Shown here: in pieces, positions 4,112 to 9,440 of the stretch | Numbering within the stretch: position 1 is the stretch's first letter | How the letters are laid out: each line of letters begins with the position of its first letter | DNA from: a virus | Taxonomy: Duplodnaviria; Caudoviricetes | Direction: 5' to 3' (one strand) | Virus record (IMG/VR): IMGVR_UViG_3300036979_000299 | Span: 1 to 50,599 of that record | Length of the DNA stretch: 50,599 nt | Notes under the pieces: model-generated | Databases searched by the model: none | Seen by the model: only the letters and a program-made list of their open reading frames with translations | What the model was told of the DNA's origin: nothing | Position numbers and translations under genes: made by a program

Positions 4112-5206
4112 TTAAACCAACGAGATCACGGCATTGCGTCCCACCCCTGTCTGGATGAACGTCTTCGATTGTAACAGATCCGCGATCAGTTCACGGACCT
4201 TGCCCTCTGACAATTTCTTGAGGAACAACGGACAATCCGGATCGTCCTGCATCTTTCTCCTCGGGGGAAGAGCGTGATCCGGTTTTTTTCTGGCGAAATC
4301 AACCATAGCCGCTCTGGTATCCGTACCGTCCACAACTCGGGGATTAAACTCAACCGGCTTCCAGTACGGCAGCTTCCTGTCCCCCGACTGTTCGATGTAG
4401 AACTCCGACAACTCGTTTCCCTTCTCGTCCACACCCAAGGCGTCGTTGGGTTTCGGGCATGAGAACCGATAAGCCCTCAAGTGACCCGTTTGTTTTTTCT
4501 TGTTGGATTCCGGGGACAACACGGAGATCACCCTGAGCCAGTTCGTCATTCTCGCCGTCCCTGCGATCATGTACTGCTCCAGATAATTGTCATCGTTCCG
4601 CATCTTCAACTTGTTCGTGTGGTTCAGCAGGAACAGGGAGAAGTTGTACTTCTCCATGAACGCATCCATCTGATTGGTCCACTCCTTGCACACCTTGTCG
4701 TCCGAGATTCCGCCTTCCGGCATGAAACTCTGATACGGGTCCACGATCAGAACTTCCGGACCGTAGCTGTCGGAGAACTCTTCCACGGCTTTGTAGAACT
4801 CATCACCCATGACACCCCGCAACCAGTGAGCGTGAAACGTATCCGATGGAACTTTGTCCAAGGACAGGTAGTGCTTGATTCCCTCGTGGTTCTTTTTCAT
4901 CACGCGGTATGAGTTCTCAGCCTGCAACAGCAGCACCCGACACTTCTGCTTCACCTGAATTCGTCCTAGCAGGGGGGAGCCCACAGCGAGGCTGATCGCC
5001 ACCTGTTGAGCCAGGACGGACTTGCCCATGCTGGAACCGGCAACCAGGCTTGTGGGGAGACCGCGCTCCAGGAAGTACTCTCCTGCCAGGTTGTCTTTTT
5101 TGTTGGGGGTGTATTCCCTGAGGAACTTATCCGTTATCGGGGGGAATCTTTCGAGGAAGGTTTTTTTGGGGGGGTTCTGTTCGGACTGCTGGGTTTTGTC
5201 GTTCAT
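4112..5206 (-). CDS. RepA-like (AAA_25, RecA-fold) helicase/ATPase
   Basis: Walker A AGSSMGKS, LLLQAEN, Walker B LIVDP, LLNHTNK. Confidence 0.85.
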   Translation of the reverse strand: MNDKTQQSEQNPPKKTFLERFPPITDKFLREYTPNKKDNLAGEYFLERGLPTSLVAGSSMGKSVLAQQVAISLAVGSPLLGRIQVKQKCRVLLLQAENSYRVMKKNHEGIKHYLSLDKVPSDTFHAHWLRGVMGDEFYKAVEEFSDSYGPEVLIVDPYQSFMPEGGISDDKVCKEWTNQMDAFMEKYNFSLFLLNHTNKLKMRNDDNYLEQYMIAGTARMTNWLRVISVLSPESNKKKQTGHLRAYRFSCPKPNDALGVDEKGNELSEFYIEQSGDRKLPYWKPVEFNPRVVDGTDTRAAMVDFARKKPDHALPPRRKMQDDPDCPLFLKKLSEGKVRELIADLLQSKTFIQTGVGRNAVISLV

Positions 5207-5292
5207 CTCACTCACTCGCTTTCTCGTCGCGGTCACGTGTTGGACTTTGTCAGAGTCTTGATCGTCGAACCTATTCGACTATCACGGCGGAC

Positions 5293-5321
5293 AGTCTGGA
5301 TTATTTTTCCGATTTTGTCAA
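5293..5321 (-). promoter_or_regulatory. Leftward sigma70-type promoter
   Basis: TTGACA-17 bp-CAGACT on the minus strand with an upstream A-tract (T run at 5327-5337). Confidence 0.65.
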
Positions 5322-5378
5322 CACGCTTTTTTTTTTCTTCAACCCAAAGTCGATCTTGTCGGACTGGGAAAAAATCGT

Positions 5379-5508
5379 ATTGGGTTATTGGGCGGATTGG
5401 GTGCCCTAAGAGGGCATCCTAACGGCAAACCCAATATCCGCCCAAAGATTACACCCATTGGGTTTGGGATAAATCCCAATTTACCCAATGTTACCCAATC
5501 ACCCAATA
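5379..5508. repeat. Cluster of TTGGG/CCCAA direct and nested inverted repeats
   Basis: About a dozen CCCAA/TTGGG units; TTGGGCGGATTGGG pairs with CCCAATATCCGCCCAA and ATTGGGTTATTGGG with CCCAATCACCCAAT. Confidence 0.8.
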
Positions 5509-5686
5509 AGCTGTCAGAGGGGGGCTTGACAAGAGGCGAAATAATTTCAGAGTGATCTCCCCAAGAGAGAGGGTCCGATCTCCCTATAGCGCGAGTCACC
5601 GTTTGCGTCCCGGTTTTGGGTTCGGGGTGTGGTCAATTGATAGCATTGCAATGCTACTCTCTCTCCCTTCACCCCCTCACTCACTG

Positions 5687-5768
5687 TGTTACACATGATG
5701 TGATACATTGATGTTACACATGATGTGACACATTGAATTTGATGTGACACATTGAGGTGATACATTGG
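5687..5768. repeat. Six tandem 12-13 bp iteron-like repeats (TGTKAYACA(T)TGA)
   Basis: Units at 5687, 5699, 5712, 5724, 5743, 5756; 25-bp higher-order duplication 5687-5736. Confidence 0.9.
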
Positions 5769-5910
5769 TCAGAGTGTGCACTTCGGACTGCACCTTCTCT
5801 CTCCGCATCCTGGGATTGTAAACCATGCAAGACCGGGTAGGTTTACAATGGAGCCTATGTATCTACAATGTATATCCCTACCCGTACGTGATACCGTACG
5901 CGGTACACCT

Positions 5911-5931
5911 CAAGTAAAGTACACTTTACTT
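5911..5931. promoter_or_regulatory. Palindromic element copy 1
   Basis: CAAGTAAAG-TACA-CTTTACTT, 15 bp upstream of the -35 box. Confidence 0.8.
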
Positions 5932-5946
5932 TTCTCTTATAACCTA

Positions 5947-5975
5947 TTGACAATAACAACAGACTATGAGATACT
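5947..5975 (+). promoter_or_regulatory. Early rightward sigma70-type promoter
   Basis: TTGACA-17 bp-GATACT with TGn extension. Confidence 0.75.
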
Positions 5976-5999
5976 CTAATCATCGGTAAGAGAACCAAT

Positions 6000-6034
6000 G
6001 CCGGGCGACTGGCGGAAAGGTGGAGAGTATGAGA
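6000..6034 (+). repeat. Hairpin-RBS-start module copy 1
   Basis: GCCGG-GCGA-CTGGC GGAAAGGTGGAGAGTATGAGA; related copies at 6178 and 8055. Confidence 0.8.
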
Positions 6035-6178
6035 ATCATATGCGAACGGTGGACGCGGGACATTGACGGTATTAGGGGATTCGATTTTGGTATCTTGTGG
6101 TTCAAGAAAGACTTCCCAGGATTTCGGAGAGTGTTCTTGCGTTTTGTAGATGGCAGAGTCCGTCTACACACAGCATAG
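6029..6178 (+). CDS. Small early protein, 49 aa (not in ORF track)
   Basis: MRIICERWTRDIDGIRGFDFGILWFKK...RLHTA*; first ORF after the promoter, strong RBS. Confidence 0.6.
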   Translation: MRIICERWTRDIDGIRGFDFGILWFKKDFPGFRRVFLRFVDGRVRLHTA

Positions 6179-6215
6179 CCGGGCGAACCGGCAGAAAGGT
6201 GGGTGAAGTATGAGA
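6178..6215 (+). repeat. Hairpin-RBS-start module copy 2
   Basis: GCCGG-GCGAA-CCGGC AGAAAGGTGGGTGAAGTATGAGA. Confidence 0.8.
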
Positions 6216-6416
6216 AAGGATCTAGTACTTAGCTTTGCCTACAGAGATTTGAGACTACGGGTAATTGCCTACGATGACGCTTACCTGCTCATCATATCTC
6301 TGCTGGCCGATGGGCGGGAGATTGTACGGAAAGAGTTTATAGATCCTCTGTCAATCTTGGGATACTTGACAGAGACCTATTTGAGAAATCGGTTATCTTA
6401 TACCTATCTAGTCTAA
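6210..6416 (+). CDS. Small early hypothetical protein
   Basis: 68-aa ORF behind module copy 2. Confidence 0.65.
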   Translation: MRKDLVLSFAYRDLRLRVIAYDDAYLLIISLLADGREIVRKEFIDPLSILGYLTETYLRNRLSYTYLV

Positions 6417-6500
6417 CAACAAGGCGAAATATGGGGAACCGTCCCCATATCGTGGCGTTATGCGCCACCTGAAGATGCCTAGCATAACAGTTTGATTTTT

Positions 6501-6513
6501 GCTCATTGAAAAC
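6501..6513 (+). promoter_or_regulatory. boxA-like antitermination motif
   Basis: GCTCATTGAAAAC resembles rrn/nut boxA; second copy GTTCATTGACAAC at 7603-7615. Confidence 0.5.
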
Positions 6514-6532
6514 TAAATCGGGTAGCATGATC
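6510..6532. repeat. Left arm of 23-bp inverted repeat
   Basis: AAACTAAATCGGGTAGCATGATC; 21/23 match to reverse complement of 7368-7390, perfect 16-bp core. Confidence 0.92.
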
Positions 6533-6552
6533 GAATCCTACAAAGGAATATC

Positions 6553-7320
6553 ATGCAAACAGATACCAATACAGAAGAGACCGAAATCACGTTGTCTGAG
6601 ACCACAAGCAAGGCGCTAATCGGGGCATTGGACGCCACGATCAAGACTTCCCTGGGTGTAGCTAAAGCGCTCCGTGATTGTTTCACGGAGTTGCTTCCAG
6701 CCCTTCCTTGGAAGGACGGAAAGTGCACTCTCACGGGAGCCAAGGCAACGAAAGCCTTGCCGGAAGTACAGTCCGCCACAAAGGTAATTAACGATATGCT
6801 CCTCAAGCATGATCGTTTTACCGTGGAAGGCGAGAAAGCGGATACCGTCAAGTTGTCGGATTCTATCCGAAATCAGATCGGTCAAGCTAAGAACGCGCTA
6901 GGATTGCCTAAGCGCAAGATTGACCGATCAGCAGGTGCAGCGGCACGGAAAGCCGAGAAGGCGCGACTGGAAGCCGAAGCAAAGGCCAAGGCTAACGGCG
7001 GCGACGCCACAATGTCAGCAGAAGCCGCAAGTGTCATACTGACAACAGCAGCTCAGATGGAACGTGCATCCTGGTCGCCGGATATCATCCGGCATGAGCT
7101 GGCGCAGTGCCTGATTGCGTTGGCTAGCCTGCAAGCGGGACATGACGCGGTAATCGAACACGTCAATCGCGCTCTGCAAGAGGCAGGGTGCGGTGAGTTG
7201 GCAATCGTTGCCAAGCCGAAAGCGGCTCCTGAGAAAGCGGTGAATAAGGAGGACCGAAAGGAAATGATGCGGCGCTTGAACGAGATGAAGGATCTCGAAG
7301 ATAGGCTTGCCGCAGGCTGA
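6553..7320 (+). CDS. Ala/Lys-rich early protein of unknown function
   Basis: 255-aa ORF, AAAGGA RBS, followed by its own terminator. Confidence 0.85.
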   Translation: MQTDTNTEETEITLSETTSKALIGALDATIKTSLGVAKALRDCFTELLPALPWKDGKCTLTGAKATKALPEVQSATKVINDMLLKHDRFTVEGEKADTVKLSDSIRNQIGQAKNALGLPKRKIDRSAGAAARKAEKARLEAEAKAKANGGDATMSAEAASVILTTAAQMERASWSPDIIRHELAQCLIALASLQAGHDAVIEHVNRALQEAGCGELAIVAKPKAAPEKAVNKEDRKEMMRRLNEMKDLEDRLAAG

Positions 7321-7367
7321 ATACCGAGAGATACGATACGATACTGAACAAAACAGAATAAGACCAG

Positions 7368-7390
7368 GATCATGCTACCCGATGAAGTTT
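7368..7390. repeat. Right arm of 23-bp inverted repeat
   Basis: GATCATGCTACCCGATGAAGTTT, complementary to 6510-6532. Confidence 0.92.
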
Positions 7391-7421
7391 AACCCGTGGG
7401 AAAGTTTCCACGGGTTTTTTA
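7391..7421 (+). terminator. Rho-independent terminator
   Basis: AACCCGTGGGAA-loop-TTTCCACGGGTT stem followed by a T run. Confidence 0.85.
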
Positions 7422-7482
7422 TTTCCCCCTCACCGTGATTTTCCCGTGGGAACGATTTATTGCCCCTCAAGAAAAAAATCCT

Positions 7483-7510
7483 TTGTCTCATAGAACCTAT
7501 ATGTTATAGT
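7483..7510 (+). promoter_or_regulatory. Second early promoter (extended -10)
   Basis: TTGTCT-16 bp-TATAGT with TGn and an upstream A-tract. Confidence 0.6.
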
Positions 7511-7578
7511 ATGTATAGTGGTAGATGGAGACAGTCGCTCACTTATGGGATGAGGCAAAACGGCTCCTGCATCGCCGA

Positions 7579-7600
7579 CAAGTAAAGGCGACTTTACTTG
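7579..7600. promoter_or_regulatory. Palindromic element copy 2
   Basis: CAAGTAAAG-GCGA-CTTTACTTG. Confidence 0.8.
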
Positions 7601-7785
7601 GCGTTCATTGACAACATAGTGCGGAATGCCGATGACAAGGCTACCGCCATGTGACGCATGATAGCGTCAACGAGTGAAATGGATTGCCCATTCCGTCCTG
7701 GCATAGCACCCAAGGGTGCAACGTGCGGAGTGAAGGGGCGATTCAGCAGGGGGGCGGTAACACGCCCCCCTGATTAGGGCAGGGT

Positions 7786-7807
7786 CAAGTAAAGTCGGCT
7801 TTACTTG
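7786..7807. promoter_or_regulatory. Palindromic element copy 3
   Basis: CAAGTAAAG-TCGG-CTTTACTTG. Confidence 0.8.
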
Positions 7808-7845
7808 CTCCTGCTCTGAGAAGCGAATACAGAAAGGGGTGAGAC

Positions 7846-8052
7846 ATGCTCTTGAAGCATACCATAGACTCTCTAAGGCTTGTCGGATTCTGCCAAAAAC
7901 ATCCTGGATGGCATTCATTTGCCACGGACAAGAAAACCCGAAAGGCGCTGGAGCGTACGTCTATTTTGGGACAAGTGGAAGTCAATCGCTTCGGACAATT
8001 CCGGAGCAGGACACCTGATATTGACGTGGCAACAGGTATTGCAAAGCGATAA
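7846..8052 (+). CDS. Hypothetical protein
   Basis: 68 aa, GAAAGGGGTG RBS. Confidence 0.7.
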   Translation: MLLKHTIDSLRLVGFCQKHPGWHSFATDKKTRKALERTSILGQVEVNRFGQFRSRTPDIDVATGIAKR

Positions 8053-8054
8053 CA

Positions 8055-8092
8055 GCCGGATCAACTGGCGGAAAGGCGGGTGAAGTATGAGA
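8055..8092 (+). repeat. Hairpin-RBS-start module copy 3
   Basis: GCCGG-ATCAA-CTGGC GGAAAGGCGGGTGAAGTATGAGA. Confidence 0.8.
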
Positions 8093-8173
8093 GATTGGTT
8101 GTTAGTTGTCCTGCTGGCCGTGGGCTACGTTTGGGGAATCATGGCAATCCTTTTGCCGTTCATGGTGAGGTGA
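8087..8173 (+). CDS. 28-aa hydrophobic membrane peptide (not in ORF track)
   Basis: MRDWLLVVLLAVGYVWGIMAILLPFMVR*; uses the ATG conserved in all three modules. Confidence 0.6.
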   Translation: MRDWLLVVLLAVGYVWGIMAILLPFMVR

Positions 8174-8175
8174 AC

Positions 8176-8307
8176 ATGATACTGGGATGGATAATACAAG
8201 CGGGCGATCTGATTATGATCCGCCTAGCACAAGGAACGCTGAGCACAGAGAACGCGGAAAACGCCCTACTGGAACTGTGGGCGCTGGACAATGAAAGGAA
8301 GGCATAA
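8176..8307 (+). CDS. Small hypothetical protein, 43 aa
   Basis: GAGGTG RBS; TAATG overlap with next gene. Confidence 0.55.
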   Translation: MILGWIIQAGDLIMIRLAQGTLSTENAENALLELWALDNERKA

Positions 8308-8990
8308 TGAAAAAGAACCATCGAAAAGATTTGGCTAATGGCGATGTGATTATCGCCACGGTTCGGTTCGATGACCAATGTAACAACGGCCATAACACTC
8401 TGTCGGTAACGGGGGAACTGTACGACCGGCATCATTCTTGTCGTGAACCATCGGTAGAGAACTCGAAAGGAAAGAAGCGGTGGATGGGTACTTGTGGGTG
8501 CATCCACGAGGAATTGATCGAGCACTTCCCCATCTTGTGTGAGGCCATCCTATTCCACTTGTGCACGACGGACGGCCCCTTGCACTACCTCGAAAACACG
8601 CTGTACCATGCCTCAGAGAACAAACCAACTCATGCGTGGGTTTACTACCTGGGCAAGAAAGCCTCCGACCCGTTGGGGTTGGGCGATGACGGCGAAAAGA
8701 AAAGGCTTCTGGGATACTTCACGGATTTTGCCATAAAGGCGGTGGGCGCGTGTGACACTCCCGGCTACAGTGTGGAATGGGACATGAAAACGATCAAGGT
8801 AAGAAACCTGGATCATGCCAGATTGACGGCAATCTGGCCAGAAGCGACGGACGAGGAATTGTCCGTCCCAGGGGAAGAACTCAAGGCAGTTCTCCTGGCG
8901 CGATTGCCAGCCCTGATGGAACGCTTCAAGAAGTGCATCGAATCCCTTGGCTTCACGTACACGGAGACACCGATCAGGGGGGACAAGTAA
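8307..8990 (+). CDS. Phage hypothetical protein
   Basis: 227 aa; DDQCNNGHNTLSVTGE...GCIHEE...HLCTTDGPLHYLEN. Confidence 0.8.
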   Translation: MKKNHRKDLANGDVIIATVRFDDQCNNGHNTLSVTGELYDRHHSCREPSVENSKGKKRWMGTCGCIHEELIEHFPILCEAILFHLCTTDGPLHYLENTLYHASENKPTHAWVYYLGKKASDPLGLGDDGEKKRLLGYFTDFAIKAVGACDTPGYSVEWDMKTIKVRNLDHARLTAIWPEATDEELSVPGEELKAVLLARLPALMERFKKCIESLGFTYTETPIRGDK

Positions 8991-9404: not shown

Positions 9405-9425
9405 CAAGTAAAGTGGACTTTACTT
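9405..9425. promoter_or_regulatory. Palindromic element copy 4
   Basis: CAAGTAAAG-TGGA-CTTTACTT just before the RBS for ATG 9441. Confidence 0.8.
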
Positions 9426-9440
9426 AACAAGAGGAACACT

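Follow-up and report, generated by a model that had tools for sequence, protein, structure and literature searches.

A possible three-element RNA switch formed by 5′UTR–3′UTR pairing in a predicted early transcript of a podovirus-like phage

The DNA analyzed here is the complete genome of a podovirus-like phage with direct terminal repeats (IMG/VR record IMGVR_UViG_3300036979_000299; 50,599 base pairs [bp]), which is called the window below, and the element in question is a pair of inverted arms, each of 23 nucleotides (nt), that flank the gene of a 255-amino acid (aa) protein. The left arm (L) and the right arm (R) are complementary at 21 of 23 positions, with a perfect core of 16 nt, two adjacent mismatches (6515-6516 versus 7384-7385), and 5 further pairs. 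As a preliminary description of the locus had stated, the arms enclose exactly one ribosome-binding site, the Shine–Dalgarno-like AAAGGA at 6542-6547, and one open reading frame (ORF), and R is followed without a gap by an intrinsic terminator consisting of a hairpin and a T-run. L is located in the predicted 5′ untranslated region (5′UTR) of the gene and R at the end of its predicted 3′UTR (Table 1).

Table 1. Positions of the arms, of the gene that they enclose, and of the signals predicted around them (MFE, minimum free energy)
Feature	Position	Strand	Remarks
Second upstream promoter-like site	5842-5869	+	From promoter scan
Sigma-70-like promoter, TTGACA-17-GATACT with TG	5947-5975	+	Nearest upstream of the arms
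Left arm (L), AAACTAAATCGGGTAGCATGATC	6510-6532	+	Within the 5′ leader, 21-43 nt ahead of the start codon
Inner half of L, GCAUGAU	6525-6531	+	Local 7-bp hairpin with the start-codon region (MFE)
Mini-helix UCCU/AGGA	6536-6547	+	Inside the L:S hairpin; holds part of the Shine–Dalgarno sequence
Start-codon region (S), AUCAUGC	6550-6556	+	Includes AUG 6553-6555; same heptamer at 7369-7375 in R
255-aa ORF	6553-7320	+	Function not assigned; neither Pfam nor PHROG family
GATAC x3 microsatellite	7330-7344	+	In the variable 3′UTR spacer that separates the stop codon from R
Right arm (R), GATCATGCTACCCGATGAAGTTT	7368-7390	+	Final 23 nt of the 3′UTR, flush with the terminator hairpin
Intrinsic terminator, hairpin 7391-7416 and T-run	7391-7426	+	11 pairs, 6 of them G-C; 4-nt loop
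Promoter-like site of the following transcription unit	7483-7510	+	Downstream of the terminator

The complementarity of the arms was compared with that expected by chance. When the genome was shuffled 100 times with a first-order Markov model, 4 of the shuffled sequences contained an inverted repeat within 3 kb with an equal or better score, and the repeat is thus on its own modestly beyond chance. The placement of the arms was evaluated by comparing the complementarity between the 100-nt flanks of each gene, expressed as an ungapped helix score. The gene of the 255-aa protein ranked first among 48 genes with a score of 17, and the next best score was 10.5. In the null set of 2256 non-cognate flank pairs the mean was 7.88 (standard deviation 1.35), and the maximum was 17.5, reached by two pairs. 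This score was used instead of the RNAduplex energy, which on 80-nt flanks did not discriminate (null mean of -32.7 kcal/mol). Because the flank complementarity of this gene is the strongest among the 48, its placement gives extra weight to the modest statistic of the repeat itself.

The fold of region 6480-7425, which the preliminary description had suggested, contains the long-range helix of L and R in its MFE structure. As with all folding results reported here, this is an equilibrium prediction. The probabilities of the individual L:R pairs were 0.70-1.00 in the 6480-7425 transcript and 0.67-0.95 in the 5982-7425 transcript, with a duplex energy of -35.1 kcal/mol and a pairing range of 835 nt. 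The inner half of L has a second predicted partner, the start-codon region S, and the two pairings are mutually exclusive. In all six model transcripts that started at 6417 and ended between 6580 and 7360, and hence lacked R, the L:S hairpin was predicted with a probability of 0.94-0.98, and the probability that the AUG was unpaired was 0.00-0.02. In both model transcripts that contained R (ends at 7395 and 7425), the probability of L:S was 0.00 and that of L:R was 0.96, with the AUG unpaired at 0.51. When local folds of equal size were compared for 47 genes, the AUG was most sequestered in the gene of the 255-aa protein, with an unpaired probability of 0.00, the next value being 0.04 and the median 0.39. 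The preliminary description had explained the arms by the release of a stabilized mRNA. It had overlooked the start-codon partner of L, and the likely logic of the locus is therefore that of a switch of translation initiation.

To follow the arms in related phages, the DNA of relatives was taken from Logan contigs of two sediment-metagenome runs, X1 and X2, and aligned to positions 5800-8300. Run X1 contains the phage itself and a variant present at lower depth (X1v), and run X2 contains a more distant relative. The changes at the end of the coding sequence of X2 are mostly silent. Among the changes listed, those of X2 in the spacer 7321-7367 amount to 14 gap letters and 3 substitutions, with indels at 7322-7361, and the stretch 7371-7407, which comprises 20 of the 23 positions of R and half of the terminator, is unchanged. 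The arm change among those listed is T to C at 7370, which is found in both X2 and X1v. Additionally, one G is missing at 7367/7368 in X2, and one base is missing at 7391 in X1v. On the opposite side of the gene, the X1 variant contig aligns from position 6419 on and its preceding 255 letters are less than 80% alike, which suggests a higher conservation of the leader than of the end of the upstream ORF. With the helix predicted at a probability of about 0.95 and the right arm kept in two relatives, the data support the proposal in the preliminary description that the two ends of one mRNA pair at the RNA level, and also its comparison with hok mRNA.

The X1 variant, whose contig depth is 14 as compared to 86 for the main form, differs from the window also inside the gene, where 106 unrelated letters stand in place of 109 nt at 7225-7335. 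Lost in this way are the final 31 codons, the stop codon, and the initial 14 nt of the 3′UTR, with the right arm and the terminator kept. This replacement is a mosaic exchange inside the gene.

The left side of the pairing was read from protein homologues of the 255-aa protein, which are P0002 with 87% identity (and its cluster mate P0007), P0003 with 70%, P0004 with 65%, and P0005 with 57%. Two of these records have N-terminal extensions before the methionine that are translations of the leader, namely VAWSKPKEEYHT in P0004 and MVKVQRGNT in P0003. The extensions were back-translated to IUPAC letters and aligned to the window, that of P0004 from position 6522 on and that of P0003 from position 6527 on. 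The P0004 leader reads GTN GCN TGG WSN AAR CCN, as compared to GTA GCA TGA TCG AAT CCT in the window, while that of P0003 reads ATG GTN, as compared to ATG ATC. Because tryptophan has a single codon and valine codons start with G, position 6530 is G in both P0004 and P0003 (A in the window), and because a threonine directly precedes the methionine (ACN ATG versus ATC ATG), the position corresponding to 6551 is C in both (T in the window). Position 6530 has two alternative partners, 6551 in the local hairpin and 7370 in the long-range helix. Its L:S pair with 6551 is A-U in the window and G-C in the two readable homologues, each time within one record, and the third position, 7370, is U in the window and C in the two readable relatives (X1v and X2). 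As read from these alignments, A/U/U in the window, G and C in the homologues, and C at 7370 in the relatives fit a compensatory change that would keep both alternative pairings, and a path through a G-U intermediate would be neutral only for plus-strand RNA. In P0004, despite the 65% protein identity, 8 of the 9 positions that can be determined in the inner part of L are unchanged, and the one that differs is accompanied by changes at both predicted partners.

According to the promoter and terminator predictions, a single transcription unit contains both arms. The two-arm transcript presumably starts at 5947-5975, and the scan of the plus strand reported no promoter between 5975 and 7483. Because the locus belongs to the first rightward unit, it is plausible that the 255-aa ORF is an early gene. 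Based on the predicted pairings, we propose that the locus encodes an RNA-level switch of three elements, operated by 5′UTR–3′UTR pairing in one early mRNA, for which we consider the chances to be about even. In this switch, an early transcript from the promoter-like site at 5947-5975 to the terminator at 7391-7426 would carry both halves of the helix. During transcription, the inner half of L (6525-6531) would pair with S (6550-6556), which would mask the AUG and enclose the Shine–Dalgarno sequence. R would emerge as the last 23 nt before the terminator, repeating the heptamer of S and extending the complementarity to 21 pairs, and it would then capture L and free the start codon. As R, which is made last, is the element that frees the AUG, translation initiation would be tied to the completion of the transcript. 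With L captured, a helix of about 23 bp would lie next to the terminator hairpin, where it could also serve as a substrate for RNase III. Its length about matches the 22 bp or so that RNase III accommodates (PMC6212723), which makes cleavage compatible with the predicted structure, although we regard it as rather doubtful that it occurs. Such cleavage would sever the gene from two small upstream ORFs and from the terminator, with a short duplex still joining the ends. Even more tentative is the view of the whole process as a timer or quality check, in which a double-stranded DNA phage would license the translation of an early gene after its 3′UTR has been synthesized, and RNase III would then trim the mRNA, leaving its ends paired. 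Where the transcript starts and ends, in which order it folds in vivo, how the folds affect translation, and any cleavage by RNase III are all inferred from the predictions.

Several observations weigh against this proposal. The repeat alone has a P value of about 0.04 per genome, and it came from a scan over many stretches of sequence. All 21 pairs are Watson–Crick pairs, and because the helix is without any G-U pair, the window itself does not favor RNA pairing over a symmetry of the DNA. The covariation is seen at one position only, and 6530 was read in different records (P0003, P0004) than 7370 (X1v, X2), so that an A-C mismatch is possible; X1v and X2 are not identical to any of P0002-P0005. 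The P0003 leader aligns less well than the P0004 leader, with 6 mismatches and 1 gap over 30 positions, the start codon of P0003 could be GTG or TTG, and the G in P0003 and P0004 may go back to one ancestral change common to both. Moreover, the outermost L:S pair, 6525:6556, cannot be kept in those relatives whose second codon starts with A. A concerted change of three elements would be equally expected for the sites of one DNA-binding protein, and hence it is by itself no proof of RNA pairing. Regarding the transcript, L is located about 530 nt from the nearest promoter-like site, and is thus not a 5′-terminal element as in hok. The probability that the Shine–Dalgarno sequence is unpaired hardly differs between the two states (0.36-0.38), which makes both the translational effect and its sign uncertain. 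Finally, ribosomes or the kinetics of co-transcriptional folding may block a helix with a range of 835 nt.

The alternative that survives best, though we consider it unlikely, is that the arms have no present function and are either a chance match or the relic of an inverted duplication from the acquisition of the cassette, with the start-codon hairpin as a by-product of CATG. A repeat that is equaled in 4 of 100 shuffled genomes could have such an origin, and the palindromic CAUG that is common to all three elements accounts for 4 of the 7 L:S pairs. Additionally, no other gene of the phage has flank complementarity of this kind among the 48 compared, which indicates that it is not a general strategy of the phage. 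What argues for a function is the location of the arms exactly in both UTRs of one gene, the conservation of R in two relatives beside an indel-rich spacer, and the conservation of the inner part of L in P0004, where the sole difference is accompanied by changes at both partners.

It is quite improbable that the arms, perhaps together with the start-codon heptamer, serve as binding or crossover sites of a protein, either as ends of an invertible segment or as paired operators in DNA looping. Invertible segments such as those of Hin, Gin, and Cin classically have inverted repeats of 20-30 bp on either side of about 0.8 kb. All copies of a site would change together if the specificity of the protein shifted or if recombination homogenized the arms, and the 21 of 21 Watson–Crick pairs also count for this explanation. 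On the other hand, a Pfam search of 37 ORFs, with about 12 smaller ORFs outside the scan, gave no match to a family of recombinases, integrases, or transposases, which agrees with the preliminary description, where no recombinase had been seen. The enclosed protein does not belong to any family, and neither arm has internal dyad symmetry. The three joints listed from the X1 and X2 contigs are all skips, none of them strand-changing, although contigs drop rare forms. In addition, the positions flush with the terminator and near the Shine–Dalgarno sequence and AUG are a need of an RNA element and not of a crossover site. RNA pairing is the simpler reading, because the Shine–Dalgarno sequence and the start codon sit in the local hairpin and the right arm is flush with the terminator. 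The likeness to Hin, Gin, and Cin is in the inverted repeats of about 20-30 bp around a segment of about 1 kb, while no recombinase gene, enhancer, or second orientation was seen here, and the arms are without internal symmetry. DNA inversion, which the preliminary description had named as the alternative, is unsupported, although a host enzyme could possibly act as the recombinase.

A transposable element with terminal inverted repeats (an insertion sequence, a miniature inverted-repeat transposable element, or the mycobacteriophage element MPME) was rejected, as each arm occurs once in the genome, no transposase family was matched, and scans of viral and metagenome contigs with arm patterns gave single matches (3 and 6) that are dissimilar to the window. 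The 16-nt arm core had 3 single matches in viral contigs, and a 20-nt arm pattern with two free positions had 6 single matches in metagenome contigs and 0 in viral contigs. These 9 loci were taken as chance matches, because none of them shows blastn or tblastn similarity to the window. The sequences flanking the arms, TGCTCATTGA and AACCCGTGGG, contain no direct repeat.

We consider it very unlikely that R and the terminator (about 7363-7426) form a 3′UTR-derived small RNA of the OppZ/CarZ type, which would autoregulate the leader in trans. The arrangement of a single-stranded seed ahead of a terminator hairpin and a U-tail is typical of small RNAs, and the fold of 7321-7430 leaves most of R unpaired. 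Small RNAs from 3′UTRs that pair with their own transcript are documented (PMC7821165). The 21 pairs are, however, far above the usual seed, and pairing in cis is kinetically favored over pairing in trans. The sole Rfam match of this region is driven by the terminator and lies below the threshold, with 22 bits as compared to a gathering score of 49.5.

The least probable reading is that of the preliminary description, which saw in the locus a full mimic of an rRNA operon, with a boxA at 6501-6513 loading Nus factors and RNase III freeing a stabilized, end-paired, and possibly circularized mRNA. In the leaders of rRNA operons, a boxA-type motif is located just upstream of the 5′ strand of the stem that encloses the product, and the boxA-like GCTCATTGAAAAC (6501-6513) has a corresponding location, where it overlaps the left arm by 4 nt. 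The presence of the motif was thus confirmed, but its match quality is at chance level. This was determined with three consensus forms, from which the boxA of the host may differ. The E. coli rrn boxA consensus with up to 3 mismatches had 11 matches in comparison to 7.5 expected, and a broader boxA consensus had 2 in comparison to 1.2 expected. The published gamma-proteobacterial consensus GYTCTTTAANA (PMC5725501) had 42 matches with up to 2 mismatches in comparison to 38.8 expected. The motif at 6501-6513 agrees with the latter at 9 of 11 positions; its two mismatches count against it, as the same source describes five positions of the E. coli boxA where single changes abolish function (PMC5725501). 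Judged by these matches, the motif is probably not a boxA, and the Nus part of the model is not supported. The helix is about as long as the 22 bp accommodated by RNase III (PMC6212723), which is consistent with an rRNA-like processing stem. However, a polymerase modified by Nus factors would be expected to pass the strong terminator at which the proposed product has its 3′ end. The circularizable mRNA is not supported either, and nothing suggests ligation of the ends. Rfam gave no match at gathering thresholds and 8 sub-threshold matches in 5200-8400, none of them meaningful. The locus resembles rRNA operons in having a helix of about 20 bp or more formed from the flanks of a whole product, hundreds of nt apart, while it differs in having an mRNA as its product, a boxA-like motif with matches at chance level, and a terminator directly after the 3′ strand. 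Hence, the analogy holds only for the gene-enclosing helix and excludes boxA, and a full mimic is highly improbable.

The preliminary description had further suggested that the enclosed gene encodes a host-takeover protein. This is unsupported, as the protein has no match in Pfam or PHROG, and its AlphaFold (AF2) model, built from an alignment of 6 sequences, has a predicted local distance difference test (pLDDT) score of 51.7. The matches in the ESM Atlas are to unnamed viral clusters only. A further homologue, P0006, with 41% identity, is encoded on a 97-kb contig. No relative of the locus was found in a phage collection with blastn and tblastn, in searches for related loci in viral, metagenome, and genome contigs with the protein or an alignment of 5 proteins, or in searches of viral contigs with the neighboring helicase-like gene and a 227-aa gene. 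The small ORFs that run over R (43 aa) and L (63 aa, antisense) matched only the window's own ORF in the protein database.

Other roles and structures were also considered for the arms and their surroundings. R was rejected as an antiterminator, as it is not complementary to the 5′ half of the terminator. No tRNA or tmRNA gene was found with ARAGORN, so the arm does not resemble a tRNA. The 5′ half of the terminator stem, CCCGTGGGAA (7393-7407), recurs at 7443-7457, 50 nt downstream beyond the T-run, and the X2 relative contains a diverged version of this recurring stretch. A promoter directly 5′ of the left arm (TTGATT-16-TAAATC) was rejected, as its -10 element has 3 of 6 matches and is without the final T, and as the scan did not report it. 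The leader is structured also beyond the L:S hairpin, with z = -4.4 for 6417-6640. In the local fold its G+C-rich segment 6451-6463 (CGUGGCG...) pairs with codons 25-29 of the ORF (...CGCCACG, about 6625-6639) and does not form a hairpin of its own, and this segment is preceded by a stable 9-bp hairpin at 6429-6450.

The genes of the phage are directed leftward up to position 5236 and rightward from about 6000, and the gap of about 1.3 kb between the two blocks has little coding sequence and holds repeats and sigma-70-like promoters. The Pfam search of the 37 ORFs identified a family-A DNA polymerase, a primase, helicase-like ATPases, a PD-(D/E)XK nuclease, a uracil-DNA glycosylase, an MT-A70 methyltransferase, an SU10-type adaptor, and two glycosyltransferases, while neither an RNA polymerase nor a recombinase was matched. 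The glycosyltransferase-like proteins, which resemble a family 9 heptosyltransferase and family 34, are encoded on the minus strand near the ends of the phage (1158-2279 and 49848-50555). The presence of these two genes suggests that the phage modifies a surface polysaccharide of its host, and that the host is Gram-negative.

Several repeats were observed in and around the gap. A 22-nt palindrome, CAAGTAAAG-N4-CTTTACTTG, occurs on the plus strand in four copies with 0-1 mismatch (5911-5932, 7579-7600, 7786-7807, and 9405-9426), where 0 are expected by chance. One copy lies in the interval that separates the two upstream promoter-like sites, and another follows the promoter-like site at 7483-7510 at a distance of about 70 nt. 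These palindromes could be operators of a phage repressor. In RNA they would form 9-bp hairpins with tetraloops (one of them GCGA), which makes them also candidates for nut/boxB-like elements. Repeat arrays at 5475-5507 and 5685-5767, in the gap between the leftward and rightward genes, the region of the sign change of the GC skew, consist of CCCAAT-type repeats of 9-10 nt and TGTGACACATTGA-type repeats of 12-32 nt. They resemble the iterons of an origin of replication or, alternatively, clustered regulatory sites. At 6000-6031 and 6178-6212 two near-identical modules, GCCGGGCGA..GGC.GAAAGGTGG, are followed by ATGAGAA, which is the start of two small ORFs (about 50 and 68 aa). Both modules have a short hairpin ahead of the ribosome-binding site, and they look like paralogous translation-initiation regions.

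To our knowledge, few cases of long-range 5′–3′ pairing in bacterial mRNAs are known (hok, icaR, hbs, RNAIII), and a non-exhaustive keyword search of the literature on 5′–3′ UTR pairing in bacteria and phages found no case of an early gene of a tailed phage. Small RNAs of the DsrA type activate rpoS by capturing the upstream strand of an inhibitory leader hairpin. The proposed switch resembles this anti-antisense mechanism in that an inhibitory leader hairpin would be opened by capture of its upstream strand, while it differs in that the captor is encoded in cis, in the 3′UTR of the same mRNA. Pairing between the 5′UTR and the 3′UTR is described for icaR, where the duplex is cleaved by RNase III, and for hbs and RNAIII (PMC7821165). 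As in icaR of Staphylococcus aureus, pairing of the two UTRs within one mRNA would make a double-stranded substrate for RNase III (PMC7821165). The difference is that the icaR 3′UTR covers the ribosome-binding site and represses translation, while here R would pair upstream of the Shine–Dalgarno sequence and displace the start-codon hairpin, and the duplex is much longer and nearly perfect. The hok mRNA of plasmid R1 has a 5′–3′ stem between tac and fbi and a metastable hairpin in the nascent transcript (PMC9841398). What is shared with hok is a 5′ element with two partners, one downstream in the nascent RNA and the other in the 3′UTR of the full-length RNA, the choice between which controls translation. 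In contrast to hok, where the 5′–3′ stem blocks translation until the 3′ end is trimmed, the helix is predicted here to free the AUG; also, the gene, with 255 codons, is not that of a small membrane toxin, and it has no known antisense RNA partner. The locus is not a member of the hok family, and the likeness is one of mechanism only. Based on the predicted structures, the locus probably joins the known class of mRNAs that pair their 3′UTR with their own 5′UTR, such as icaR, hbs, and RNAIII.

If the arms are not a functional element, they are an ordinary fortuitous repeat around an orphan gene. The N-terminal extensions that gene callers leave in protein databases are a usable source of leader covariation when DNA is not at hand. 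If the proposed pairing is real, a leader of about 130 nt and a 3′ end of about 60 nt would suffice to tie translation to the completion of a transcript, which would provide a compact natural part for the synthetic control of gene expression. For the phage it might mean that one gene has a built-in timer or quality check, by which its translation would be uncoupled from transcription.

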